From assembly GCA_944323485.1 (NCBI GenBank), contig CALUSR010000003.1, positions 201,466 to 265,465 on the forward strand: a stretch of 64,000 bases of DNA, read 5' to 3'. The DNA comes from Candidatus Gastranaerophilales bacterium (GTDB lineage Bacteria; Cyanobacteriota; Vampirovibrionia; Gastranaerophilales; CAJFVJ01). This document shows, one piece after another, positions 1-49,079 of this stretch (position 1 is its first letter; every line of letters starts with the position of its first letter). The notes beneath the pieces were generated by a model, which was given only the letters and a program-made list of their open reading frames with translations, ran no database searches and was not told the DNA's origin. The position numbers were made by a program, and so were the translations under genes.

Positions 1-645
1 TCTTGCTTTATCAAAATCTCTGGTTGATACATCAAGAATTTTTTGAACATCTTGATTTGAAGAATATCTTTTTCCTGCAAGTTTTTTGACAAATTCGCTG
101 AAATCCTCATCACAGGCAAATTCACCTGAAGGAATCCTCTCTTTTCCGTTTCCTTCAAACGTCATAGCCCCCTTTGTTTCTTGCAGCGGTTCAGCAACAG
201 CCATTGTTTCTTCTCCCGCGTGTTTTGTCATAACAGGCTGTTCATCTCCGGAGAGTGGAATCTCTTCATTCGGTTTCTTTTTGGTATCAACGACCCCATC
301 AAGAATCTCATCCAACTTTGAGGTTGACGCCTTTCTTGCCTTTGAGAGTTTTTCAATAGCCTCATCACCGGCAAAGAGAGTTTTCAGTTTTTTAGAAAAA
401 CTGACACCTTTCATATCACTATCTTTGAAAAGTGCATTGAATGATTCCATAAGATTCTTGTTATTCTTTTTTAACACGGCTAAGCTTAAAATTGCGGCAC
501 CAAACACAACGGCTGCACCTATAGCAGTTTTTATTTTATTATTCTTTTTATTTTTTTTCTCAATTTTATCAGAAGATTCAAAACTGTCAGATTGTTCTGA
601 ATTATTTTTGACAACAGAACTGCTATCCTGTTTATTAACCATCAT
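1..645 (-). CDS. hypothetical membrane-anchored protein, 3' end outside window
   Basis: Reverse-strand reading from ATGATG at 645 gives MMVNKQDSSSVVKNNSEQSD...KIKTAIGAAVVFGAAILSLAVLKK... and stays open to the window edge, with one hydrophobic helix. It is absent from the ORF track because it has no stop in the window. The + ORF 86..649 is its low-complexity shadow. Confidence 0.5.
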   Translation of the reverse strand, partial: MMVNKQDSSSVVKNNSEQSDSFESSDKIEKKNKKNNKIKTAIGAAVVFGAAILSLAVLKKNNKNLMESFNALFKDSDMKGVSFSKKLKTLFAGDEAIEKLSKARKASTSKLDEILDGVVDTKKKPNEEIPLSGDEQPVMTKHAGEETMAVAEPLQETKGAMTFEGNGKERIPSGEFACDEDFSEFVKKLAGKRYSSNQDVQKILDVSTRDFDKAR

Positions 646-8860: not shown

Positions 8861-8999
8861 TTGATTTATATAGTCAATTCCGCCCAAAATTTCCAAAGCA
8901 ACGTCATACCGAGTATCTGAACAAAAAGGATTCTTCGGGCTAAAGCCCTCAGAATAACGGACTTTTAATAATATCTTCGGAATTTGCTATATAAGTTCC
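8861..8999. repeat. MITE-like element, diverged copy A (inverted relative to copy B at 40210..40359)
   Basis: The ends ttgatttatatagtcaatt and aatttgctatataagttcc are inverted repeats. The interior aligns by eye with the reverse complement of 40229..40340, including the hairpin GATTCTTCGGGCTAAAGCCCTCAGAAT. Confidence 0.55.
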
Positions 9000-9041: not shown

Positions 9042-10589
9042 TCAATATAATATGGCGGGTGTCGCCAAGCGGTTAAGGCCTCGGATTGTGGTTCCGATAT
9101 TCGTGGGTTCGAATCCCATCATCCGCCCCATATTAAACTTATTATCAGTCAATCGGTCTAAGAACTCGAATATGACTGATTTTTTATGTGTTCGAAAATT
9201 ACTCAAATCAAAACTTGCTCCCTCTGGATAAATCAGTTTTTGTAAACGCTGTCTAAATTCAAGCCCACCACTTTCCCATAGGCTTTTAATATTATTCAGA
9301 GCAAAGCAACAACTGTCTAAGAATTGATTAATACTACTTTCAGGGATTTCCATGCCTGCTAATATCGTCTTTTTATCCAAAATAGCCTGCTCTATATCAT
9401 CATTAACAAGCTTATAATCTCTTTCGGACAGTTTATCATCTATGTACTTTTTAGTCAGCCTTAATTTGCTTTCATTAAGTTCTTTGAGTTCATTTTCAAG
9501 TTGCTTTTTCAGGTTGGTCTGCTCTTTTATTTCTTCATTGTAAACATCTTCCAGTATGCTTCTAAACAAGGTTAAAAGCTCTTTTTTAGGTTTAATCACT
9601 TCAAGATGTTTTTTAAACTCCTCTTCTAATCTATCCTTTCTAATCCTGAACTTTAGCATACAGTCTTTATTGTGACAGTGATAATATGCATATTTCTGAT
9701 TTCTGCCTTTACTGTAACTTGCTGTTAAAGGTTTGTTGCAATAAGGACACTTAATATACTGTCTTAAAGGGAATTCTTCTCTATTTCGTTTGTAGCCGGT
9801 AATTAATGGCTTTTTACCGTCTAATATTGCCTGAACTTTATAAAAAGTATCTTCATCGATAAGCGGTTCGAAAATTCCCCTGACTGGTTCATCAAGCCAG
9901 CTATAAGTAAGCATTCCGATATAAACTTTATTTCTTAAAATCCTGCCTACTTTGTTTTTATTGAGGTCTTTCATGCCTGCTTGTCTTAACTTTTCCATAA
10001 CTTCTATTTGAGAATATAAACCAGTAGCAAATAATTCAAACGCCATTTTGATATACTTTGCATTTTCAGGACAAGGGATTAAAGATTTTTCTTTATCATT
10101 TTTATATCCGACAGGGGCTAAATTTACCCATCTGCCTTTATTAACAGCCCCTCTCATTCCTAGTTTAGTTCTTTCACATATTTTTCGCCATTCATAACGG
10201 CTTGTTCCTTGTGTTATCCATCTTAAAAACTCTGCTTCGGGTGTATCTTCATTATTTTCTGTTACAGATAAGGGCTTAATATTGGTTCGTTCAAAAAACT
10301 GTCCTAAGACATGATAGTCTGATTGCTCACCTCTTGATAGTCTGTCCCATTTCCAAAATATCAAAACATTAATATCTTTTTTATGTTCGGCACAAAACTC
10401 AAACATTCTTTTTAATTCTGTACGGATTAAGTCTTTAGCACTTTCGCCTTTTTCTCTAAAAATCTTAACAACTTCATAACCGTTCTTTACGGCAAATTCC
10501 ATACATTCCTGTTCTTGTTGACCTAAACTATAACCATGTTTAGCTTGTTCTTCCGTTGATACTCGACAGTATATTACAGCTTTTTGCAT
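9042..10589 (-). CDS. large serine recombinase (integrase)
   Basis: Resolvase catalytic N-domain (AVIYCRVSTEEQ), a recombinase domain, a zinc ribbon (CPYCNKPLTASYSKGRNQKYAYYHCHNKDC) and a coiled coil. The last ~29 codons run antisense through the tRNA-His gene. Confidence 0.85.
   Translation of the reverse strand: MQKAVIYCRVSTEEQAKHGYSLGQQEQECMEFAVKNGYEVVKIFREKGESAKDLIRTELKRMFEFCAEHKKDINVLIFWKWDRLSRGEQSDYHVLGQFFERTNIKPLSVTENNEDTPEAEFLRWITQGTSRYEWRKICERTKLGMRGAVNKGRWVNLAPVGYKNDKEKSLIPCPENAKYIKMAFELFATGLYSQIEVMEKLRQAGMKDLNKNKVGRILRNKVYIGMLTYSWLDEPVRGIFEPLIDEDTFYKVQAILDGKKPLITGYKRNREEFPLRQYIKCPYCNKPLTASYSKGRNQKYAYYHCHNKDCMLKFRIRKDRLEEEFKKHLEVIKPKKELLTLFRSILEDVYNEEIKEQTNLKKQLENELKELNESKLRLTKKYIDDKLSERDYKLVNDDIEQAILDKKTILAGMEIPESSINQFLDSCCFALNNIKSLWESGGLEFRQRLQKLIYPEGASFDLSNFRTHKKSVIFEFLDRLTDNKFNMGRMMGFEPTNIGTTIRGLNRLATPAILY
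9054..9130 (+). tRNA. tRNA-His (anticodon GTG)
   Basis: Folded by hand into a cloverleaf: acceptor GCGGGTG/CATCCGC, anticodon arm TCGGA-TTGTGGT-TCCGA, T arm GTGGG-TTCGAAT-CCCAT. An extra G-1 pairs with discriminator C73, the His identity hallmark. CCA is encoded. Confidence 0.9.
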
Positions 10590-32687: not shown

Positions 32688-34475
32688 ATGACAACAAAAC
32701 AAATTAAAGTAATGGACACCTCTTTCAGAGACGGATTCCAATCAGTATACGGGGCAAGAGTTTTTACAAAAGACTTTCTTCCCGCTCTTGAATCTGCAGT
32801 CAATGCAGGTCTTAAACACTTTGAAGTCGGAGGCGGGGCCAGATTTCAATCACCGATATTCTACTGCAACGAAAATGCCTTTGATATGATGGATACCATC
32901 AGAAAAACCGTCGGCCCGGATATAAATCTGCAAACTCTGGCAAGAGGCGTTAATGTCGTCGGGCTTGACTCACAACCTAGAGATATAATCAATCTCCACG
33001 CAAAATTGTTCAAAAAACACGGTATGACAACTATAAGAAACTTTGATGCCCTAAATGATGTCCACAACCTCATCTATTCAGGTCAATGCATCGTTGACAA
33101 CGGACTGAACCACGAAGTTACCATAACTATGATGGAACTTCCCATCGGCTGTACAGGAGCACATGACGTGGACTTCTATGAAAGAGTCCTGAGAAACATC
33201 CTCGATGCAGGAATACCTTTCACATCTATAGCATTTAAAGATGCATCAGGAACATCAGCTCCAAGAAAAGTTTATGAAACAATTAAAAGAACAAGAGAAA
33301 TTCTTGGCGCAGACACTCACATCAGATTTCACTCTCATGAAACAGCAGGCACCGGACTTGCAGCTTACCTTGCAGCACTCGACGGCGGTGCTGACGGAAT
33401 AGACTTATCTATGAAACCGGTGTCAGGAGGTACTGCACAGCCTGATATAGTATCAATGTGGCATGCACTCAAAGGAACAGAATATGACCTTGGCATAAAC
33501 ATTGAAAAAATTCTTGAAACTGAAGAAATATTCAAAGAATGTATGAAGGACTACTTCCTCCCTCCTGAAGCTCTCGCAGTCAACCCGGTTATAATCTCAT
33601 CACCTCTCCCCGGTGGTGCACTGACTGCAAACACCCAGATGATGAGAGATAACGGAACCATGGACAAATTCCCTGAAGTTGTAACAGCAATGAAAGAAGT
33701 TGTCGAAAAAGGAGGATTTGCAACCTCTGTTACTCCCGTTTCACAATTCTACTTCCAACAAGCTTACTCAAACGTAATGTTCGGTCCCTGGAAGAAAATA
33801 ACCGAAGGCTACGGAAAAATGGTTCTCGGATATTTCGGAAAAACACCTTGCGAACCTGATAAAGACATTATCAAACTTGCCTCGGAACAACTCGGACTCG
33901 AGCAAACAACCGAAACCGTTGTCGATCTGAACGATAAAGACCCTAATAAAGGAATTGAAGCTGCAAAGAAAATGCTCGCTGATGCTAATCTCGAACAAAC
34001 CGAAGAAAATATATTCATAGCAGCAACCTGCAAAGAAAAAGGTATCGCCTTCCTCCAAGGTCATGGAACAATCGGCGTAAGGAAAAACTCACCTGCCTCA
34101 ACAACATCAGCAGGCAAGTCTGATGCATATACGGTTAAAGTCAACGGCAAAAACTATGCGGTAAAATTTGAAGGAAATAAAGCCGTCGTAAACGGTAAAA
34201 CTTATGATGTTTCACTAAAAGAAGGCATCGACTCATCATCACCTTCTCACCATACAGAAGGAGAAACAGAAGTAAAATCACCTCTCCCGGGTGCAATTAT
34301 GAGAATAATCGTATCCGAAGGCGACCATGTTGACGAAGGTGACACACTCTTAGTTATAGAAGCAATGAAAATGGAAACAGACATCAAAGCTCCAAAATCA
34401 GGTGTTGTTTCATCAATTTCGGTCTCTTCTGGAGATCAGGTTGTCACAGGACAAACGCTCGTTAGCATAAACTAA
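32688..34475 (+). CDS. oadA: oxaloacetate decarboxylase alpha subunit (carboxyltransferase plus biotinyl domain)
   Basis: DTSFRDGFQS carboxyltransferase N-terminus and a C-terminal biotin attachment motif EAMKMET. Confidence 0.9.
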   Translation: MTTKQIKVMDTSFRDGFQSVYGARVFTKDFLPALESAVNAGLKHFEVGGGARFQSPIFYCNENAFDMMDTIRKTVGPDINLQTLARGVNVVGLDSQPRDIINLHAKLFKKHGMTTIRNFDALNDVHNLIYSGQCIVDNGLNHEVTITMMELPIGCTGAHDVDFYERVLRNILDAGIPFTSIAFKDASGTSAPRKVYETIKRTREILGADTHIRFHSHETAGTGLAAYLAALDGGADGIDLSMKPVSGGTAQPDIVSMWHALKGTEYDLGINIEKILETEEIFKECMKDYFLPPEALAVNPVIISSPLPGGALTANTQMMRDNGTMDKFPEVVTAMKEVVEKGGFATSVTPVSQFYFQQAYSNVMFGPWKKITEGYGKMVLGYFGKTPCEPDKDIIKLASEQLGLEQTTETVVDLNDKDPNKGIEAAKKMLADANLEQTEENIFIAATCKEKGIAFLQGHGTIGVRKNSPASTTSAGKSDAYTVKVNGKNYAVKFEGNKAVVNGKTYDVSLKEGIDSSSPSHHTEGETEVKSPLPGAIMRIIVSEGDHVDEGDTLLVIEAMKMETDIKAPKSGVVSSISVSSGDQVVTGQTLVSIN

Positions 34476-40148: not shown

Positions 40149-40209
40149 AGCCTCCGATCTTTTTCAATATTGTATTCAAAAGATAGTTTTTATTCAAACT
40201 AAAAAAATA

Positions 40210-40359
40210 GGGATTTATATAGCAAATTCCACAGATACTATTAAAAGTCCGTCATTCTGAGGGTTAAAGCCCTCAGAATCTTTTTTGTTTAGATACTCCG
40301 CTAGCGCTCAGTATGACTTTGTTTTGGAAATTTTTGGTAAAATTTGCTATATAAATCCC
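40210..40359. mobile_element. 150-bp MITE with perfect 19-bp terminal inverted repeats (copy B)
   Basis: GGGATTTATATAGCAAATT at 40210..40228 is the exact reverse complement of AATTTGCTATATAAATCCC at 40341..40359. The interior carries the hairpin ATTCTGAGGGTTAAAGCCCTCAGAAT. aaaaata is present on both flanks. Confidence 0.65.
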
Positions 40360-40371
40360 CAAAAATAATAC

Positions 40372-40399
40372 TTGCAATAATCACAAAAAAATGTATAAT
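40372..40399 (+). promoter_or_regulatory. candidate promoter of the arg operon leader
   Basis: TTGCAA, a 16-nt spacer, then TGtATAAT (extended -10). Confidence 0.4.
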
Positions 40400-40436
40400 A
40401 AGTGTAAATTGAACGATTAATTAAAGAGATATCAAA

Positions 40437-40487
40437 TTGAACAAGATTATTTTCACAACAGAACTTCGACGTCGCAACCTCTTCTAG
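40437..40487 (+). CDS. candidate arg operon leader peptide, MNKIIFTTELRRRNLF (TTG start)
   Basis: 16-codon ORF with three consecutive Arg codons (CGA CGT CGC). It is embedded in a stem-loop and followed by a terminator directly upstream of argF. Confidence 0.45.
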   Translation: MNKIIFTTELRRRNLF

Positions 40488-40544
40488 CAGGTTGAATCTG
40501 GTGTGCAAAAATAATCGCATAAAAAATTTTAGTTTTAATTTTAA

Positions 40545-40584
40545 AACACCATATTCTCCCAAAATACGGATATGGTGTTTTTTT
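40545..40584 (+). terminator. intrinsic terminator (attenuator) 22 nt upstream of the argF start
   Basis: AACACCATAT-15 nt-ATATGGTGTT followed by TTTTTTT. Confidence 0.65.
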
Positions 40585-40606
40585 GTGTATAACGGAAAGG
40601 GCAGAA

Positions 40607-41533
40607 ATGAACTTAAAAGGCAAACATTTTATTAATCTTGAAGATTTTTCAAAAGATGACATCCTTGGACTCCTCGATTTGGCAGAGGCTTTGAAAAAAG
40701 ATGTCAAAGAAAAAAAAGACCTAAACATCCTGAAAAATAAAACTCTCGTTATGTACTTTTCAAAACCGAGTTTGAGAACAAGAATAAGCTTTGAAGTCGG
40801 AATGCAAAAACTCGGAGGAAATGCTGTTGTAATAAAACAGGATGAAATTATCCTCGGGAAAAGAGAGAGCATTGAAGACACGGCAAGAGTCATCTCAAGA
40901 TATGCTGATGGGATTACTATCAGAACTTTTGCTCACAGCGATGTTGAACAGTTCGCAAAATACTCTTCAATCCCAGTAATAAATGCCCTGACTGATTTAT
41001 CTCACCCATGCCAGATTATGGCCGACCTGTTAACGATAAAAGAACACTTCAAAAAATTCAACGGATTGAAACTTGCTTATATCGGAGATGGAAACAACGT
41101 TACAAACAGCTTGCTAATCGGATGCTCTCTTCTGGGAATTGATATATCAGTAGCGGCACCAGAGGGCTATGAACCTGACAGCGAATGTGTTTTAAACGCA
41201 AAAAAATTCGCTTCGAGCTCAGGAGCAAAAGTCGAAATTTTGAACTCTCCTGATGATGCAGCTAAAGGGGCACATGTTTTCTACACTGATGTGTGGACAA
41301 GCATGGGTCAGGAAGCTGAGGCGGAAAAAAGAAAAGAAATATTCAAAAACTATCAGATAAACACCAATCTGCTGAAACTGGCAGATAAAAACCACATTGT
41401 CCTCCACTGTCTGCCGGCGCATAAGGGAGAGGAAATTACAGAAGAAGCCTTTGAGCTGCATGCAGCATCAATTTTTGAGCAGGCAGAAAACAGAATGCAT
41501 GCACAAATGGCAATTATGGCATCTATAATGTAG
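40607..41533 (+). CDS. argF: ornithine carbamoyltransferase
   Basis: STRTR motif (SLRTRISFE), HPCQ, and HCLPA near the C-terminus. The ATG at 40607 is preferred. Confidence 0.9.
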
Positions 41534-41561
41534 AAAATTTCAAAATAAAAGGAGAAAAGAG

Positions 41562-42806
41562 ATGAAGAAAAAAGTTATTTTGGCTTACTCAGGAGGTTTG
41601 GATACAACAGTTATTATTCCATGGCTGAAAGAGAATTATGATTATGATGTAGTGGCTGCCTGCATAGATGTAGGACAGGGAACGGAAACTGACGGATTAG
41701 AACAAAAAGCGCTTGATACAGGTGCTTGCAAGTATTATTTGATTAACTGCGAAGAAGAGTTTGTAGAAGATTATGTTTATCCGACACTGAAAGCTGATGC
41801 GGTATATGAAGGGAAATATCTCCTCGGAACATCAATCGCAAGACCGCTGATTGCAAAAAAACTTGTCGAAATAGCAATTCAAGAGGGCGCTTCAGCTATC
41901 TGCCACGGGGCAACAGGGAAAGGCAACGATCAGGTAAGATTTGAACTCGGCATCAAAGCTCTTGCCCCTGAACTTGAGATAATTGCCCCATGGAGAATAT
42001 GGGATATCAAATCAAGAGAAGATGAGATTGAATATCTTGAAAAAAGAGGCATTCCTGTTCCTATGAAAAAAGATGATACTTACTCAAGAGATAAAAATCT
42101 CTGGCACCTGAGCCATGAGGGATTGGAACTTGAAGACCCCGCTAACGAGCCGAATTATGACAAACTTCTGCATCTTTCTGTCACACCAGAAAAAGCACCT
42201 GATACCCCTGAATATGTCGTAATTGATTTTGAGGAAGGAATTCCAGTTAAAGTAAACGGCGAAACAATGAGTCCTGCCTCAATTGTCAAAAAACTCAATG
42301 AGATAGGCGGAAAAAATGCAATAGGAACAATAGACCTCGTAGAAAACAGAGTTGTCGGAATGAAATCAAGAGGGGTATATGAAACGCCCGGAGGGACTAT
42401 TCTTTATGCTGCGCATAAAGAGCTTGAATACCTCTGCCTTGATAAACAGACTCAATCTTTCAAACAAATCGTTGCAAACAAGTTCGCAGAACTCACTTAC
42501 AGCGGAGAATGGTTTACTCCTCTGAGAGAAGCTCTCTCTGCATTTGTTGATGAAACACAAAAGACAGTCACTGGAACGGTAAAACTCAAACTCTACAAAG
42601 GTAATATTATACCGGCAGGTGCAAAATCACCATATTCTTTGTATAATGAAAGCCTCGCAAGTTTCACTACAGGTGATTTATACAGCCATAAAGATGCTGA
42701 AGGTTTTATCAACCTGTTTGGTCTGCCGCTGAAGGTTAATGCATTGATGAAGAAGAAAAATGAACTGAATAAGGAACAAAAAGATGCAGCAACTCTGGGG
42801 GTCTAG
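41562..42806 (+). CDS. argG: argininosuccinate synthase
   Basis: [13 protein letters not shown] N-terminus ([10 protein letters not shown]) and [13 protein letters not shown]. Confidence 0.9.
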
Positions 42807-44172
42807 GTTCTCAAAAAAATTGGATGAGTCAGTCAACGACTTCAACTCATCTTTGAGCTTCGATAAAAAACTTTGTAAATATGACATACAGGGCAGTGTT
42901 GCTCATGTTTTGATGTTGAAAGACCAGAAAATTCTCGATGAAGATGAAGCACTGCTTCTTGTCAATGCACTGAATGAAATACTCCTTGACTATGAAGAAG
43001 GGAAAATTGTCTTTGACACGGCATTTGAAGATATCCATACAAATGTCGAAAAACTCCTCATTGAAAAAGTCGGAGATATCGGGAAAAAAGTCCATACGGC
43101 AAGAAGCAGAAATGATCAGGTTGCTCTTGATGTGAGGATGTATTTGAAAGAAGAAACCAAAGCAATTCAGTCACTTTTGCTTGAACTGCTCAAAACTCTT
43201 CTTGATATCTCAAAACAGCATACGGAAACAATTATGCCTGGGTATACGCATCTTCAAAGAGCACAGCCCATCACATTTGCCCATCATCTTGGTGCTTATA
43301 TCGAGATGTTCAAAAGAGATTTCGAAAGGCTCTCTGACTCATACAAAAGAATAAACATCCTGCCTCTCGGTTCAGGAGCGCTTGCGACAACTCCTCATAA
43401 CATTGACAGATACAAAACAGCGCAATATCTCGGGTTTGATGATGTTTCTCTAAACAGCCTCGATGGAGTTTCTGACAGAGATTTTATCATCGAAACTCTT
43501 AGTGATTTATCACTGATTATGACTCACCTGAGCAGATTTTCAGAGGAGCTTGTGCTGTGGTCAAGCTTTGAATTTAAATTTATAGAGCTTGACGACGGAT
43601 TTTCAACGGGAAGCAGCCTTATGCCCCAGAAGAAAAATCCAGATATCCCCGAGTTAATAAGGGGTAAAACAGGCAGAGTCTACGGAAGTCTTGTTTCTCT
43701 TCTCACAACTATGAAGGCGCTGCCTCTTGCTTATAACAAAGATATGCAGGAAGATAAAGAACCCCTCTTTGACGCAGTAGAAACTGTGAAACTCTGTCTC
43801 TCGATACTTCCTCCTATGCTAAAAACAATGAGGATTAACAAAGATAAGATGCTCTCAGCCGTGAAAGAAGGATTTTTGAATGCAACTGATGTCGCTGATT
43901 ATCTTGTCAAAAAAGGTGTTCCATTCAGAGATGCCCACGAATGTGCAGGAGCGCTTGTTGCCTATGCAATTCAGCAGAACAAAACTCTTAATGAGCTGAC
44001 TATTGATGAGTATAAACAAAAAAGCATTCTTTTCGAAGATGACATTTTTGAAGAGATATCTCCTCAAAAATCGGTATTATCAAGAAAAGTGACAGGCGGC
44101 CCGGCACCTGATACCATGAAAAAAGTTATTGAAATGAATGAAAAGTGGATAAAAAACAATGAGCAAAATTAA
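42784..44172 (+). CDS. argH: argininosuccinate lyase
   Basis: LWGSRF N-terminus and the fumarate-lyase signature [12 protein letters not shown]. It overlaps argG by 23 nt. Confidence 0.9.
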
Positions 44173-45208
44173 AGCAGCAATAATCGGCGCAACAGGCTAT
44201 GTCGGAGAAGAGTTGTTCAGACTCCTGTCCTCACACCCTGATGTTGAAATCAGTCATATAACATCAGTGAGCTATCTCGGTAAAAAATACACTGATGTAT
44301 ATGAGAACTTCAAACATATAACTAACCTCTCATGCAGCGAAGATAATCTTGAAAAAATATCTGATGAAGCTGATGTTATGTTCCTCGCACTGCCTCATGG
44401 AATTGCCTCAGGTAAGATAAATGAAACCATACTCTCAAAATGTAAGGTTATAGATATGGGCGCTGATTTCAGACTCAAAGATATAGAAGTTTATGAAAAG
44501 TGGTACGCAACAGAGCATAAAAGCAGAGAACTCCTCTCAAAAGCTGTCTATGGTTTATGCGAGCTGAATAGAGAAGAAATTAAAAACTCTTCTCTCATCG
44601 CAAACCCGGGGTGTTATACAACTTGCTCGATTTTGAGTCTTGTCCCTTTGTTGAAAGAAGATTTAATCAAAGAAGATTCAATTATCATAGATGCAAAATC
44701 AGGAGTAACCGGTGCAGGACGGGGTGTCAGCCTGAGCAACCTCTACTGCGAGGTGAATGAATCAATAAAGGCTTATAAAGTGACATCTCACAGACATACT
44801 CCTGAGATTGAGCAAGAACTCTCAAAAGTTGCAGGAAAAGATATTCTATTATCCTTCACTCCTCATCTAATCCCAATGAACAGAGGGATTCTTGCAACAT
44901 GTTATGCAAAATTGAAAAAACATATCAGTTACAAAGAGTTGAAAGCTGTCTATGAAAAATATTACGGAAATGAATATTTCATCAGACTTACAAAAGAAGG
45001 CGTATTCCCCGAGACAAAATGGGTAAAAGGCTCAAACTTTGTTGATATAGGACTGTCTGTAGATGAACGAAGCGGAAATGTCGTTGTTATTGGTGCAATT
45101 GATAACCTTATGAAAGGTGCAGCAGGACAAGCTGTCCAAAATATGAATATTATATTCGGTCTTGATGAAAAAACATCGCTGACAACACCGGGGATATTCC
45201 CTGTATAA
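44159..45208 (+). CDS. argC: N-acetyl-gamma-glutamyl-phosphate reductase
   Basis: GATGYVG Rossmann N-terminus and the active-site region NPGCYTT. Confidence 0.9.
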
Positions 45209-45220
45209 GAAGGAGATAAA

Positions 45221-46441
45221 ATGAATATTATAGAAGGCGGAATTACTGCTCCAAAAGGTTTTCTGGCAACAGGAGAACATGTGGGAGTAAAAAAAGTAAA
45301 AAAAGATCTGGCAATCATCTACAGCGAAAAACCTGCATTATGCTCGGCTGTTTTCACAAAGAATCTTGTGAAAGCTCCCCCGCTATGGTGGTGTGAAAAA
45401 CTTGTCAAAGAAAAACAAAAAATTCAGGCAATAGTAATCAACAGCGGTAACGCAAATGCCTGCACAGGAGATAGAGGTTATCAGGATGCACTTGCTATGG
45501 CTGAAACTCTTTCTGAATGCCTGCATATCAAAAAAGAGTCCGTACTTGTAACTTCAACAGGAGTCATAGGGGTTTATCTCCCGATGGATAAGATTATCCC
45601 GGGAATAAAAGAAACTTCAAAAACTCTCGGGGCTGATGAAAAATCAGCAAAAAGATGCGCAAAAGCAATCATGACAACAGATACTTTCAGAAAAGAAATT
45701 GCCGTAGAAATAGAGATAAAAGGTAAAAAAGTAAAACTTGCCGGAATTGCAAAAGGTTCGGGGATGATTCATCCGAATATGGCTACTATGCTTGGTTTTA
45801 TTACTACAGATATCAACATATCCCAAGAGCTTTTGGATAAAGCATTTAAAGAAAACATCAATGATTCGTTCAATATGATTACTGTCGATGGAGAAACAAG
45901 CACGAATGATATGGCTGTAATTCTTGCAAACGGCCTAGCTGAGAACCCCGTTGTTGATAAAGAAGATGAAGACTATGAAAAATTCAAAACAGCCCTCGAC
46001 TACATAACAAAATACCTTGCAAAACAAATAGTCAAAGACGGCGAAGGTGCTACAAAGTTTTTGGAATGCCAGATTTTCAATGCAAAAAACAAAGAAGAAG
46101 CAAGAGTCTTATGCAAAGCAATCTTGAACTCAAACCTCGTCAAAACAGCATTTTTCGGGAATGATGCAAACTGGGGCAGAGTCCTGTCAGCTATGGGGGC
46201 ATCAGGAATTGATTTTGATCCGAATCAGGTAAAAATCTCCTTCAAAAACGATAAAGGCGAAATAAAGTTATTCGAAAACGGTCTGCCTGTTGAGTTTGAT
46301 GAAGACTTCGCCTTCAAAATTCTAAAACAGGAAGAGGTAAAAATTCTGATTGATATGAACCGTGGGATGGAGTCAATTACCGGATGGGGATGCGATTTGA
46401 GCTTTGATTATGTCAAAATCAATGCAGAATACAGAACTTAG
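45221..46441 (+). CDS. argJ: bifunctional ornithine acetyltransferase / N-acetylglutamate synthase
   Basis: GITAPKGF N-terminus and the autoprocessing site ATMLGFITTDI. Confidence 0.9.
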   Translation: MNIIEGGITAPKGFLATGEHVGVKKVKKDLAIIYSEKPALCSAVFTKNLVKAPPLWWCEKLVKEKQKIQAIVINSGNANACTGDRGYQDALAMAETLSECLHIKKESVLVTSTGVIGVYLPMDKIIPGIKETSKTLGADEKSAKRCAKAIMTTDTFRKEIAVEIEIKGKKVKLAGIAKGSGMIHPNMATMLGFITTDINISQELLDKAFKENINDSFNMITVDGETSTNDMAVILANGLAENPVVDKEDEDYEKFKTALDYITKYLAKQIVKDGEGATKFLECQIFNAKNKEEARVLCKAILNSNLVKTAFFGNDANWGRVLSAMGASGIDFDPNQVKISFKNDKGEIKLFENGLPVEFDEDFAFKILKQEEVKILIDMNRGMESITGWGCDLSFDYVKINAEYRT

Positions 46442-46454
46442 AAGGAAATAAACA

Positions 46455-47345
46455 ATGCAGGAATACATAAAAAAAGCAGGAATATTGATTGAGGCAATGC
46501 CATATATCAGCAAGTTTCACGGGAAAACCGTCGTCATCAAATACGGCGGCAGCGCTATGACCGATGAAGAAATAAAACACTCCGTAATAGGTGATATTGC
46601 TTTCATGAAAATGGTCGGTATCAACCCTGTCATTATTCACGGCGGCGGTCCTGAGATAAACAAAGCACTTGCATTAGAGGGTATTGAACCAAAATTTTTC
46701 AACGGACTCAGAGTTACCGATGAAAAGACAATGCAGGTTGTTGAGTCTGTTCTGTCAGGAAAAATTAACAAATCAATTGTCGCAGAATTCCAGCGTCATA
46801 AAACAAAAGCAGTAGGCATCTCAGGAAAAGACGGAATGTTGATTGAAGCGGAGAAAAAAATGCCTGATGGAGCTGATATAGGCTTTGTCGGTGACATAAA
46901 AAAAATAAATACTGAAGTACTTGATACTCTTATCAAAAGCGATTTTGTTCCGGTTATATCTCCTGTCGGAGCTGATAACGAGGCAAACACTTATAACATC
47001 AACGCTGATTATGCCGCTGTAGAGATTGCAATTGCACTCAAAGCAACAAAACTTGTGTTCCTGACGGACATAGAAGGCGTAAGAATGAACGCAGATAATC
47101 CTGATTCTTTAATATCACGTTTAACCCCTCTTGAAATAGAAAATATGATTAACAACGGAACAATTACGGGAGGAATGATTCCAAAAGTTGAGTGCTGCTC
47201 AAAGGCAATCAAGTCAGGTGTTAATTCAGTTCACATAATCAACGGAAAAATAGAACATTCTATTCTTTTGGAAATTTATACAAAAGACGGCATAGGTACA
47301 GTAATTGAGGAGGCTGAAGATGAACAAGTTGCTCTCGTCCACTAA
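46455..47345 (+). CDS. argB: acetylglutamate kinase
   Basis: VIKYGGSAM and HGGGPEI motifs. Confidence 0.9.
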   Translation: MQEYIKKAGILIEAMPYISKFHGKTVVIKYGGSAMTDEEIKHSVIGDIAFMKMVGINPVIIHGGGPEINKALALEGIEPKFFNGLRVTDEKTMQVVESVLSGKINKSIVAEFQRHKTKAVGISGKDGMLIEAEKKMPDGADIGFVGDIKKINTEVLDTLIKSDFVPVISPVGADNEANTYNINADYAAVEIAIALKATKLVFLTDIEGVRMNADNPDSLISRLTPLEIENMINNGTITGGMIPKVECCSKAIKSGVNSVHIINGKIEHSILLEIYTKDGIGTVIEEAEDEQVALVH

Positions 47346-48522
47346 GGAATTGTCAGATAAATATATTATGAACACTTACAAACGCCTCCCTCTTGTCATT
47401 GAAAAAGGAGAAGGAGTCTATCTTTTTGATGAAGACGGAAATAAATTTCTCGATTTTGTAGCAGGTATAGCAGTCAACTGCCTCGGATACGGGAACAAAA
47501 AATTTATTGAGGCTGTAAGCTCTCAGCTCGAGTTATTCAACCACTGCTCAAATATTTATTACAATAAACCTCAAACTGATGTTGCAGAGATTCTTGTTGA
47601 AAACAGTTGTTTTGATAAAGTATTTTTCTGCAACAGCGGAGCTGAGTCAATTGAGGCGGCATTGAAATTATGCAGAAAATTCGGTAATTCAAAAAAAGAA
47701 GGGTGTAATGAAATAATCACCATGAAAAACTCTTTCCATGGGAGAACTCTCGGAGCAATAACAGCAACAGGACAGGAGAAATATCAAAAAGGGCTTGATC
47801 CCCTTCTTCCAAACATTTTTTATGGAGAGTATAACAACCTCGAGTCAATAAAAGCGTTGATAAACGAAAACACCTGCGCCATTTTAATGGAAGTTATACA
47901 GGGTGAAGGAGGTGTAATTCCTGCTGATAAAGAATTTCTTGAACAGGTAAGAACCTTGTGCGATGAAAATGATATCCTGCTTGTTTTTGACGAAGTACAG
48001 ACAGGAATCGGCAGAACAGGGAAATTATTTGCTTACGAGAATTATAATGTTGAACCTGATATCATCTGTCTTGCAAAAGGACTTGCAAACGGTATTCCGG
48101 TTGGAGCAATGATGGCAAAAGAAAAAGCAGCTAAATATTTCTCACCGGGGGACCATGCTTCGACCTTCGGCGGTAATCCTATCGCTATGAGCGGAGCAAA
48201 AGTCGTACTGGATGAAATTATTAATCAAAAACTTCTTCAAAATGTACGTCAGGTTGGAGATTATCTGAAAGCCGAGCTAAAAGTGCTGAAGATAAAATAC
48301 CCTGATATCATTCAGGATGTAAGAGGTTTGGGGCTTATGCTCGGAGTTGAATGCAGCATTTCTCCTTCTGAGATAATATCCGAATGCCAGAAAAACGGTT
48401 TGCTGTTAATAGGCGCAGGACACAATGTCATAAGATTCGTTCCTCCTCTTGTTATATCAAAAGCTGATGTTGATGAGGCTGTTTCTGTTTTTGAAAAAGT
48501 ACTTATGAAGATTAATAAATAA
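47320..48522 (+). CDS. argD: acetylornithine aminotransferase
   Basis: Class III aminotransferase (DEVQTGIGRTGK, PLP-Lys context CLAKGLANG). The ATG at 47320 behind the GAGGAGG RBS is preferred. It overlaps argB by 26 nt. Confidence 0.9.
   Translation: MNKLLSSTKELSDKYIMNTYKRLPLVIEKGEGVYLFDEDGNKFLDFVAGIAVNCLGYGNKKFIEAVSSQLELFNHCSNIYYNKPQTDVAEILVENSCFDKVFFCNSGAESIEAALKLCRKFGNSKKEGCNEIITMKNSFHGRTLGAITATGQEKYQKGLDPLLPNIFYGEYNNLESIKALINENTCAILMEVIQGEGGVIPADKEFLEQVRTLCDENDILLVFDEVQTGIGRTGKLFAYENYNVEPDIICLAKGLANGIPVGAMMAKEKAAKYFSPGDHASTFGGNPIAMSGAKVVLDEIINQKLLQNVRQVGDYLKAELKVLKIKYPDIIQDVRGLGLMLGVECSISPSEIISECQKNGLLLIGAGHNVIRFVPPLVISKADVDEAVSVFEKVLMKINK
48380..48520 (+). repeat. direct repeat copy 1 (the functional 3' end of argD)
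   Basis: About 140 nt, nearly identical (3 mismatches by eye) to 49050..49190, offset 670 bp. Confidence 0.85.
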
Positions 48523-48746: not shown

Positions 48747-49079
48747 ATGGAAAAGAAAGGTATATTTGCAAGTTATGAAGCAATCTCAACAGACGTCAAA
48801 TACGGCGAAAAACCGCAACCAATCACAACAGAAGAAGTCATTGAAAGACTTAACGACAGAGGATATGGACTTCAGCAAGAAGAAAATATCAGGGGAAATG
48901 AACTGGTTTCACGATCCGACAGGGGAGGATCTGATAATAGAGTAGTTTATAATCAATCAGCATATCACGGAACGCCACACAGTTTTAATGAATTTTCTCT
49001 TGAACATATAGGAACTGGCGAGGGGCACAGGTTAATGGTTGAAGATTACCCGAATGCCAGAAAAACGGTTTGCTGTTAA
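48747..49079 (+). pseudogene. truncated fragment of a mobile-element (polyvalent-protein-like) gene, running out of frame into argD repeat copy 2
   Basis: ..AYHGTPHSFNEFSLEHIGTGEGHR.. then a nonsense tail EDYPNARKTVCC where the ORF enters the duplicated argD sequence at about 49050. Confidence 0.4.

Follow-up and report, generated by a model that had tools for sequence, protein, structure and literature searches.

An arginine-codon leader upstream of argFGHCJBD in gut Melainabacteria is a probable ribosome-mediated transcription attenuator

Textbooks place arginine-biosynthesis (arg) operons under the control of ArgR/AhrC or, in some Firmicutes, of T-boxes. Here, we examine a 64,000-nucleotide stretch of contig CALUSR010000003.1 (hereafter “the window”) from a Candidatus Gastranaerophilales bacterium, in which a short leader precedes the operon argFGHCJBD. 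The metagenome-assembled genomes (MAGs) of the Gastranaerophilales represent Melainabacteria, the non-photosynthetic sister group of the Cyanobacteria. Judging from sequence comparison and RNA modeling, this leader is likely to control the operon through ribosome-mediated transcription attenuation of the leader-peptide type, in response to the level of charged tRNA-Arg. An original prediction, made on the letters of the window, had interpreted the region as a ribosome-stalling attenuator built on Arg codons, and the comparative and folding evidence detailed below supports that interpretation. The mechanism is a textbook one; what is new is its amino-acid specificity, the clade that carries it and a codon usage that strictly separates the isoacceptors of the leader from those of the genes behind it.

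The Yanofsky model is the basis on which the leader can be compared with the enterobacterial attenuators trpL, hisL, leuL, thrL, pheL and ilvL. Like the arg leader, these have a promoter-proximal mini-open reading frame (mini-ORF) with a cluster of end-product codons, overlapping 1:2, 2:3 and 3:4 hairpins, and an intrinsic terminator just before the first gene; trpL comes closest in its small number of regulatory codons (2-4). The comparison also rests on Vitreschak et al., as cited in PMC12508126. Unlike the enterobacterial leaders, the arg leader would be specific for arginine, belongs to a Melainabacterium rather than a proteobacterium, is often started with TTG (two examples are apparently leaderless) and restricts its regulatory codons to CGN while the regulated genes use AGA. 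It also matches no Rfam leader family: His_leader, Trp_leader, Leu_leader, Thr_leader and others were absent from the window at E-values up to 10, and none reached the gathering score in 12 related loci. Chance Rfam matches in the window and 15 related loci (Yfr10 and U1A_PIE on the terminator) were set aside, as were unrelated tRNA and fluoride-riboswitch matches.

Arginine codons also serve as sensors in leaders of other genes. The Salmonella/E. coli speF leader acts in several layers, with involvement of Rho and sensing of ornithine by the nascent peptide. Its ORF34 (SpeFL) shares with the arg leader a short upstream frame with consecutive Arg codons, but its target is ornithine decarboxylase, an enzyme of polyamine synthesis and not of arginine biosynthesis, and the sequences are unrelated. 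According to PMC6386406, it is through these codons that the supply of arginine is linked to alternative conformations of the mRNA and to its premature termination. In Staphylococcus aureus, rare AGA/AGG codons in the rbfL leader sense arginine limitation via the scarce tRNA-Arg (UCU); the paused ribosome occludes the ribosome-binding site and represses rbf translation, with no terminator/antiterminator switch (PMC13009471). The likeness lies in rare Arg codons that sense a scarce isoacceptor, although the codons in the arg leader are CGA, CGU and CGC instead, and its target is the arg operon rather than a biofilm regulator.

Other systems do the same physiological job by different means. ArgR/AhrC also provides arginine feedback on arg biosynthetic operons, but as a DNA-binding repressor at transcription initiation. 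No ARG box (TGAATWWWWATTCA, at most 2 mismatches) lies near the arg promoter; the closest matches there, at 40183 and 40535, have 3 mismatches, and matches across the window are at chance level. The window encodes no ArgR signature, a result that says nothing about the genome outside it. In other species, T-boxes regulate arginine genes (PMC1262725), and the Arg-specifier T-boxes of Firmicutes, like the arg leader as proposed, read tRNA-Arg charging and switch a terminator before arginine-related genes. T-boxes, however, bind the tRNA directly and need no translation; the arg leader is too short for one (about 150 nt from start codon to T-tract), and the T-box covariance model matched neither the window nor 12 relatives. 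Finally, the fungal arginine attenuator peptide, encoded by the arg-2/CPA1 upstream ORF, controls an arginine-pathway gene in response to arginine. In contrast to the arg leader, that system belongs to eukaryotes: free arginine is sensed by the nascent peptide, the stall takes place at termination and downstream translation is repressed, without a terminator switch and with a sensing logic opposite to that of the arg leader.

Among species-representative genomes, the best ArgF matches come from two Candidatus Gastranaerophilales MAGs (72-73% identity), and a protein search returned many closer relatives (66-99%). The DNA around twelve of the latter was examined together with loci L001 and L002, giving 13 distinct leaders (the window, L001, L002, L161 to L168, L171 and L173) whose ArgF proteins are 67-100% identical. 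Despite sequence divergence, all 13 keep the whole layout: a promoter, a mini-ORF with Arg codons, a hairpin overlapping or directly 3' of those codons, a linker and a terminator. The genes flanking the leaders upstream differ (nadA, DUF2971, ferredoxin, YibE_F, LemA, Prismane and others); the leaders thus come from separate genomic contexts. The original prediction had staked itself on conservation of the mini-ORF and of the alternative pairing in relatives, and both are conserved in 13 of 13 leaders.

As in known attenuators, a short ORF with initiation signals lies between the promoter and the first structural gene. In the window it is the 16-codon TTG-started ORF with three consecutive Arg codons that had been proposed; across the 13 leaders its length ranges from 16 to 35 codons. 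Every leader carries 2-4 Arg codons, against about 3% Arg in the proteins of the window. The first is codon 10-15 of the ORF, the others fall within the following 6 codons, and a CGA-CGT pair occurs in 11 leaders. Over the 27 nt before the first Arg codon, the Arg frame is free of stops in 13/13, whereas the other frames contain stops in 6/13 and 9/13. A purine-rich Shine-Dalgarno (SD)-like motif, mostly AAGGAA or AGAGG, stands just 5' of the start codon in 11 leaders, eight of which start with TTG. The remaining two, L002 (~2790-2830) and L171 (~1270-1310), are without an SD; in both, an ATG follows the -10 hexamer at a distance of exactly 7 nt, a geometry that suggests leaderless translation of their peptides. 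Ribosome recruitment thus appears to have been kept via two different routes; together with the open Arg frame, the SD-led starts and leaderless ATGs argue that translation is a conserved property of the element.

The encoded peptides vary around the Arg codons (LRRR, ARRR, VRRSR, IRRQDR, IRRTSRR and LRQSR), with a common core of (Q/E)-(L/A/V/I)-R-R. This core reads TELRRRNLF in the window, SQLRRSNLI in L161, TQLRRRRLF in L162, TQARRRSLI in L163, NQVRRSRF in L165, AQIRRQDR in L168, AELRRQGLR in L001, NQIRRTSRRT in L171 and TELRQSRF in L002.

Codon choice sets the leader apart from the operon that it precedes. The Arg codons in the long ORFs of the window are AGA 318, AGG 66, CGT 67, CGC 34, CGA 28 and CGG 23, and 49 of the 63 in the arg operon are AGA, counts that agree with the earlier claim of CGN codons in the leader against an AGA preference nearby. 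Across the 13 leader ORFs, 38 of 41 Arg codons are CGN (CGA 14, CGT 13, CGC 10, CGG 1), whereas 77 of 83 are AGR (AGA 70) in the 13 argF genes next to them; the difference has a Fisher p of 5e-22. In bacteria, CGU, CGC and CGA are read by tRNA-Arg(ICG). Sensor and regulated genes therefore appear to depend on different isoacceptors. Elf, Ehrenberg and colleagues reportedly proposed in 2003 that codons sensitive to starvation would be found in attenuator leaders and robust ones in the genes of biosynthetic enzymes, and the split between leader and argF matches that idea.

The RNA of the window leader is predicted to fold as the original prediction had drawn it: the minimum-free-energy (MFE) fold from RNAfold reproduces both the composite leader hairpin and the terminator. 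The terminator stem reads AACACCATAT, a 15-nt loop and ATATGGTGTT, and the element ends 22 nt before the argF ATG. As a whole, the 211-nt region folds with z = -1.95 relative to shuffles. The 73-nt segment with the leader hairpin reaches z = -2.9 against dinucleotide shuffles (mean over the 13 leaders, -2.2). In all 13 leaders a terminator is present and ends 3-37 nt before argF, as expected of an attenuator.

Both helices carry compensatory changes. Standard pairs were counted in a MAFFT alignment (A1) over 18 pairs of the post-Arg hairpin and terminator, with 500 column shuffles as the control. They fill 86.6% of the cells, against 77.7% in the shuffles (0/500 as high) and at most 51.5% when the 3' partners are slid by 1-3 columns. 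Both sides have changed in 11 of the 18 pairs, compared with a shuffle mean of 5.4. The terminator helix alone is 95% paired, with 8 of its 11 pairs compensatory. The post-Arg hairpin is built from at least seven different stem sequences across the leaders: CAACCUU/AAGGUUG, CAGCCUU/AAGGUUG, GCCGCU/AGCGGU, AGCCGAU/AUCGGCU, AAGACC/GGUCUU, AAGGCCUU/AAGGUCUU and CUCGAAUCAA/UUGAAUCGGG. RNAalifold, applied to the MAFFT alignment of the core, predicted no structure, because hairpin registers differ between lineages.

The original prediction had paired TGGTGT with ACACCA of the terminator 5' arm as a candidate antiterminator. This pairing proved longer than first seen: the duplex GAAUCUGGUGU/ACACCAUAUUC has 10 of 11 positions paired, at -13.0 kcal/mol against -5.6 +/- 1.9 for shuffles (z = -3.9). 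An equivalent duplex (mean z = -2.1) is found in all 13 leaders and begins 16-36 nt 3' of the first Arg codon; the strand that pairs with the terminator arm comes from the 3' arm of the post-Arg hairpin, from a following GAAUUUGGUGU-like element, or from both. When region 2, the segment 3' of the Arg codons, is paired with terminator arms, cognate combinations average -10.2 kcal/mol and non-cognate ones -7.9 kcal/mol (permutation p = 0.0007). L173 exemplifies this preference: its terminator arm is changed to CCCUAUUCAA and its region 2 to UUGAAUCGGG.

Ribosome stalling was simulated with a 29-nt ribosome mask in full-length MFE folds, and in a co-transcriptional snapshot in which the transcript was cut just before the terminator 3' arm and the mean probability of upstream pairing of the 5' arm was taken. 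In the snapshot, the predicted sequestration of the 5' arm is 0.39 without a ribosome; it is 0.74-0.75 if Arg codon 1 or 2 occupies the A site, and 0.37 if the stop codon does. A stall on the Arg codons raises it in 11 leaders and leaves it unchanged in two (Wilcoxon p ~0.001 for no ribosome versus Arg codon 1, and 0.0005 for stop codon versus Arg codon 1). When the ribosome is walked codon by codon, sequestration stands at 0.56-0.60 at upstream codons, is highest (0.71-0.75) at positions -1 to +2, counted from the first Arg codon, and is down to 0.37-0.42 by +5 to +6. By this prediction, a stall would favor antitermination most strongly just where the Arg codons lie. Duplex energies, the cognate test and mask folding all point to mutually exclusive antiterminator and anti-antiterminator structures, subject to two caveats, fixed-register covariation and the full-length folds, that are weighed below.

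From these features we infer that the leader ORF is translated, that ribosomes stall within it, and that the operon responds to arginine through kinetic competition between antiterminator and terminator. Transcription would start from the promoter listed in the Table, and a ribosome would translate the 16-codon leader. With plentiful Arg-tRNA that reads CGN codons, the ribosome would clear CGA-CGU-CGC and reach the stop codon or read through region 2; the stop codon of the window lies in the hairpin loop, and in six leaders with longer ORFs translation would run through region 2. With region 2 either occupied by the ribosome or paired again with region 1, the terminator would form and halt transcription ahead of argF. 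If arginine is scarce, the ribosome would instead stall with an Arg codon in its A site and cover region 1. The freed region 2 (AGGUUGAAUCUGGUGUG) could then capture the 5' arm of the terminator (ACACCAUAUUC) while the 3' arm is still to be transcribed, and RNA polymerase would read through into the operon.

Table. Predicted elements of the arg leader and the operon behind it (window coordinates).
Feature	Coordinates	Strand	Details
Promoter, sigma-70-type	40372-40399	+	TTGCAA (-35) 40372-40377; 16-nt spacer; TATAAT (-10) 40394-40399
Shine-Dalgarno-like AAAGAGA, weak	40423-40429	+	7 nt before the leader-ORF TTG; read from the sequence
Leader ORF, 16 codons + TAG	40437-40487	+	MNKIIFTTELRRRNLF; TTG at 40437, TAG at 40485-40487
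Arg codons CGA CGT CGC	40467-40475	+	Proposed stall site
Outer stem	40454-40462 with 40497-40505	+	CACAACAGA with TCTGGTGTG
Inner stem	40475-40480 with 40489-40494	+	CAACCT with AGGTTG
Region 1, 5' side of leader hairpin	40454-40480	+	Outer arm CACAACAGA, Arg codons, inner arm CAACCT; MFE fold
Region 2	40489-40505	+	AGGTTGAATCTGGTGTG; partner is region 1 (anti-antiterminator) or the terminator 5' arm (antiterminator)
Intrinsic terminator	40543-40584	+	5' arm AAAACACCATAT (region 3), 15-nt loop, 3' arm ATATGGTGTT (region 4), T-tract to 40584
argF SD	40594-40601	+	GGAAAGGG
argF	40607-41533	+	ATG at 40607; first gene of argFGHCJBD
Operon argF, argG, argH, argC, argJ, argB, argD	40594-48522	+	NCBIfam

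Several observations weigh against the ribosome-mediated attenuator. The 13 leaders all come from one clade, so that counts across them are of non-independent events. There are only 2-4 regulatory codons, and the two in L002 are not adjacent; the window itself has a TTG start codon and a weak SD. The G+C-rich CGN codons may be favored in part through a base-pairing role in the stems. The antiterminator helix, taken in a fixed register, does not covary beyond shuffles (61.9% paired; 91/500 shuffles as high), a null result that arises because the pairing register differs between lineages. Covariation, which the original prediction had named as a check, was thus found for the terminator and the leader hairpin, but not for the fixed-register antiterminator or with RNAalifold. 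Finally, when the stalled ribosome is masked in full-length MFE folds, 12 of 13 leaders keep their terminator. A purely thermodynamic switch is rejected on this ground, and antitermination must therefore be kinetic.

The leader might also work in other ways. It might be no conditional element at all, but a constitutive partial terminator or an RNA-stability element around which an ORF and alternative pairings arose fortuitously in AT-rich DNA. The persistence of the terminator in full-length folds would fit, as would the modest structure of the window region by itself (z = -1.95) and the chance frequency of promoter-like hexamers in this AT-rich region. This explanation is nonetheless highly improbable, given that the whole architecture is kept in 13 lineages with diverged flanks and leaders, that both helices covary, that cognate pairings of region 2 with the terminator are preferred, and that the Arg-codon bias is so strong (p = 5e-22). 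Further, both strands of the 64-kb window were scanned for short ORFs that have an SD, contain two or more Arg codons in a row and precede a terminator; the arg site and just one other locus, near 34236-34239 on the minus strand, fit this description. If control is conditional, the sensor need not be a ribosome: the conserved leader hairpin containing ACGACGU could be recognized by a small ligand or by an RNA-binding protein acting in trans, which would decide between terminator and antiterminator, with the ORF incidental. Promoter, terminator and alternative pairing would suit any type of attenuator; CGACGU is near-invariant as a nucleotide string in 11 of 13 leaders, synonymous positions included, and several MFE folds place the Arg codons within stems. 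We nevertheless consider such a sensor unlikely. The Arg frame is open in every leader while stops occur in the other frames, and a start codon with an SD or a leaderless ATG is conserved. Arg is also kept where the nucleotides differ (CGC CGC in L171; CGT and CGA in L002; CGA CGC CGC AGA in L162). No conserved unpaired aptamer-like core is apparent besides the Arg codons and the stems, no Rfam family matches, and the predicted switch peaks with the ribosome on the Arg codons.

Even with a ribosome as the sensor, hungry codons need not be the signal. The (Q/E)-hydrophobic-R-R motif could instead act as an arrest peptide that senses free arginine in the ribosome tunnel, in the manner of the fungal arginine attenuator peptide, TnaC or SpeFL. 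The motif is indeed conserved as peptide, with five different codons at the hydrophobic position, and ligand-sensing leader peptides are known, such as TnaC (PMC8429421) and speF ORF34 (PMC6386406). The sign would be wrong, however: the prediction is that ribosomes halted at the RR site lead to sequestration of the terminator arm and so to induction of the operon, and an arginine-triggered stall would thus switch biosynthesis on amid plentiful arginine. Besides, the peptides are short (16-35 residues) and otherwise unconserved, with variable C-terminal tails, and the strict CGN usage against AGR in argF points to a signal at the level of tRNA. We therefore regard an arrest peptide as very unlikely. 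On the comparative and modeling evidence, the element is very probably real as a ribosome-mediated attenuator with a new amino-acid specificity.

No such leader lies upstream of argF in L175 and L176 (more distant or G+C-richer), in Brachyspira L003 or in the Melainabacteria L013 and L073. The genome of L175 is G+C-richer, its argF stands alone, and a gene of the Na+/H+ exchanger family at that locus is preceded by a fluoride riboswitch (Rfam RF01734, 44.3 bits) at 136-219 (+). Among 151 argF loci of other phyla, scanned for an Arg-rich mini-ORF and a terminator, no credible leader was found: the matches outside the clade lacked a convincing SD context, several came from G+C-rich upstream sequence, and the one in Megamonas (L075) lies inside argD in another frame. 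A metagenome scan with ArgF gave, among the matches listed, at most 56% identity and no further leaders. As an observation apart, the nearest ArgF outside the clade is that of Brachyspira, gut spirochaetes (63-64%), ahead of other Melainabacteria at 52-54% (L003-L005; P0088-P0120); this ranking hints at horizontal transfer of argF between gut lineages.

The remaining parts of the locus agree with what had been proposed; every element listed in the original prediction was found in the sequence, with small coordinate corrections only. The promoter hexamers and their 16-nt spacer are present as stated, with 10 of 12 hexamer positions matching consensus. A TG directly adjoins the -10 hexamer and differs in this from the canonical TGn of extended -10 promoters. 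The promoter recurs in 13/13 leaders, with a ACTTGCAA-type -35 upstream of most of the related ones. The identity of the argFGHCJBD operon is confirmed by NCBIfam equivalog or subfamily models, which all seven genes match far above the cut-offs.

The surroundings of the operon have features of their own. Between the nadA start and the arg promoter, at 40210-40359, lies an element of ~150 bp resembling a miniature inverted-repeat transposable element (MITE), whose terminal inverted repeats (GGGATTTATATAGCAAATT) match perfectly over 19 bp and whose interior holds a terminator-like hairpin and T-run at 40254-40285. A second copy, 87-92% identical, is found at ~8886-8994 on the minus strand, just upstream of tRNA-His (9055-9130). 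L161, the closest relative with the same nadA-argF arrangement, is without this element. The argF-argG spacer measures 28 nt in the window; it is long (130-330 nt) in L173 (2446-2773), L164 (2428-2561) and L171 (2440-2609), where it holds G+C-rich long palindromes, e.g., GGCGGTAGATTTTCAGGCGGGGGC...GCCCCCGCCTGAAAATCTAC in L173, which may be inserted repeat elements or internal terminators. Just 3' of argD, an ORF of 110 residues (48747-49079, +) has no NCBIfam match.

The original prediction knew of no Arg-codon leader attenuator for a bacterial arg operon, and the literature that we searched is consistent with this. No published example was found in the searchable literature, from which most subscription journals are missing, so that an older description is possible. 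Control of arg operons by an Arg-codon attenuator is not described in PMC2965389, PMC1262725 or PMC8632094, and the first of these, a genome-wide attenuator survey, does not mention arginine. It is quite possible, although we would stop short of calling it probable, that this is the first Arg-specific leader-peptide attenuator of an arginine-biosynthesis operon, confined to a gut Melainabacteria clade and wired to a single tRNA-Arg isoacceptor. With a sensor that uses almost only CGA/CGU/CGC and enzymes encoded almost entirely with AGA, it would then be a natural example of selective charging as conceived by Elf and Ehrenberg, possibly replacing a missing ArgR.

The finding has a practical side for annotation: such leader ORFs are too short for gene finders, and Rfam holds no model for the element. 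It also bears on a conspicuous gap, since arginine is missing among the amino acids with known classical leader-peptide attenuation. A conserved Arg attenuator in an uncultured gut lineage would provide a clean comparative case of the mechanism invented for a six-codon amino acid, and the split between CGN in the leader and AGR in argF would make it a test bed for isoacceptor-specific sensing of starvation.

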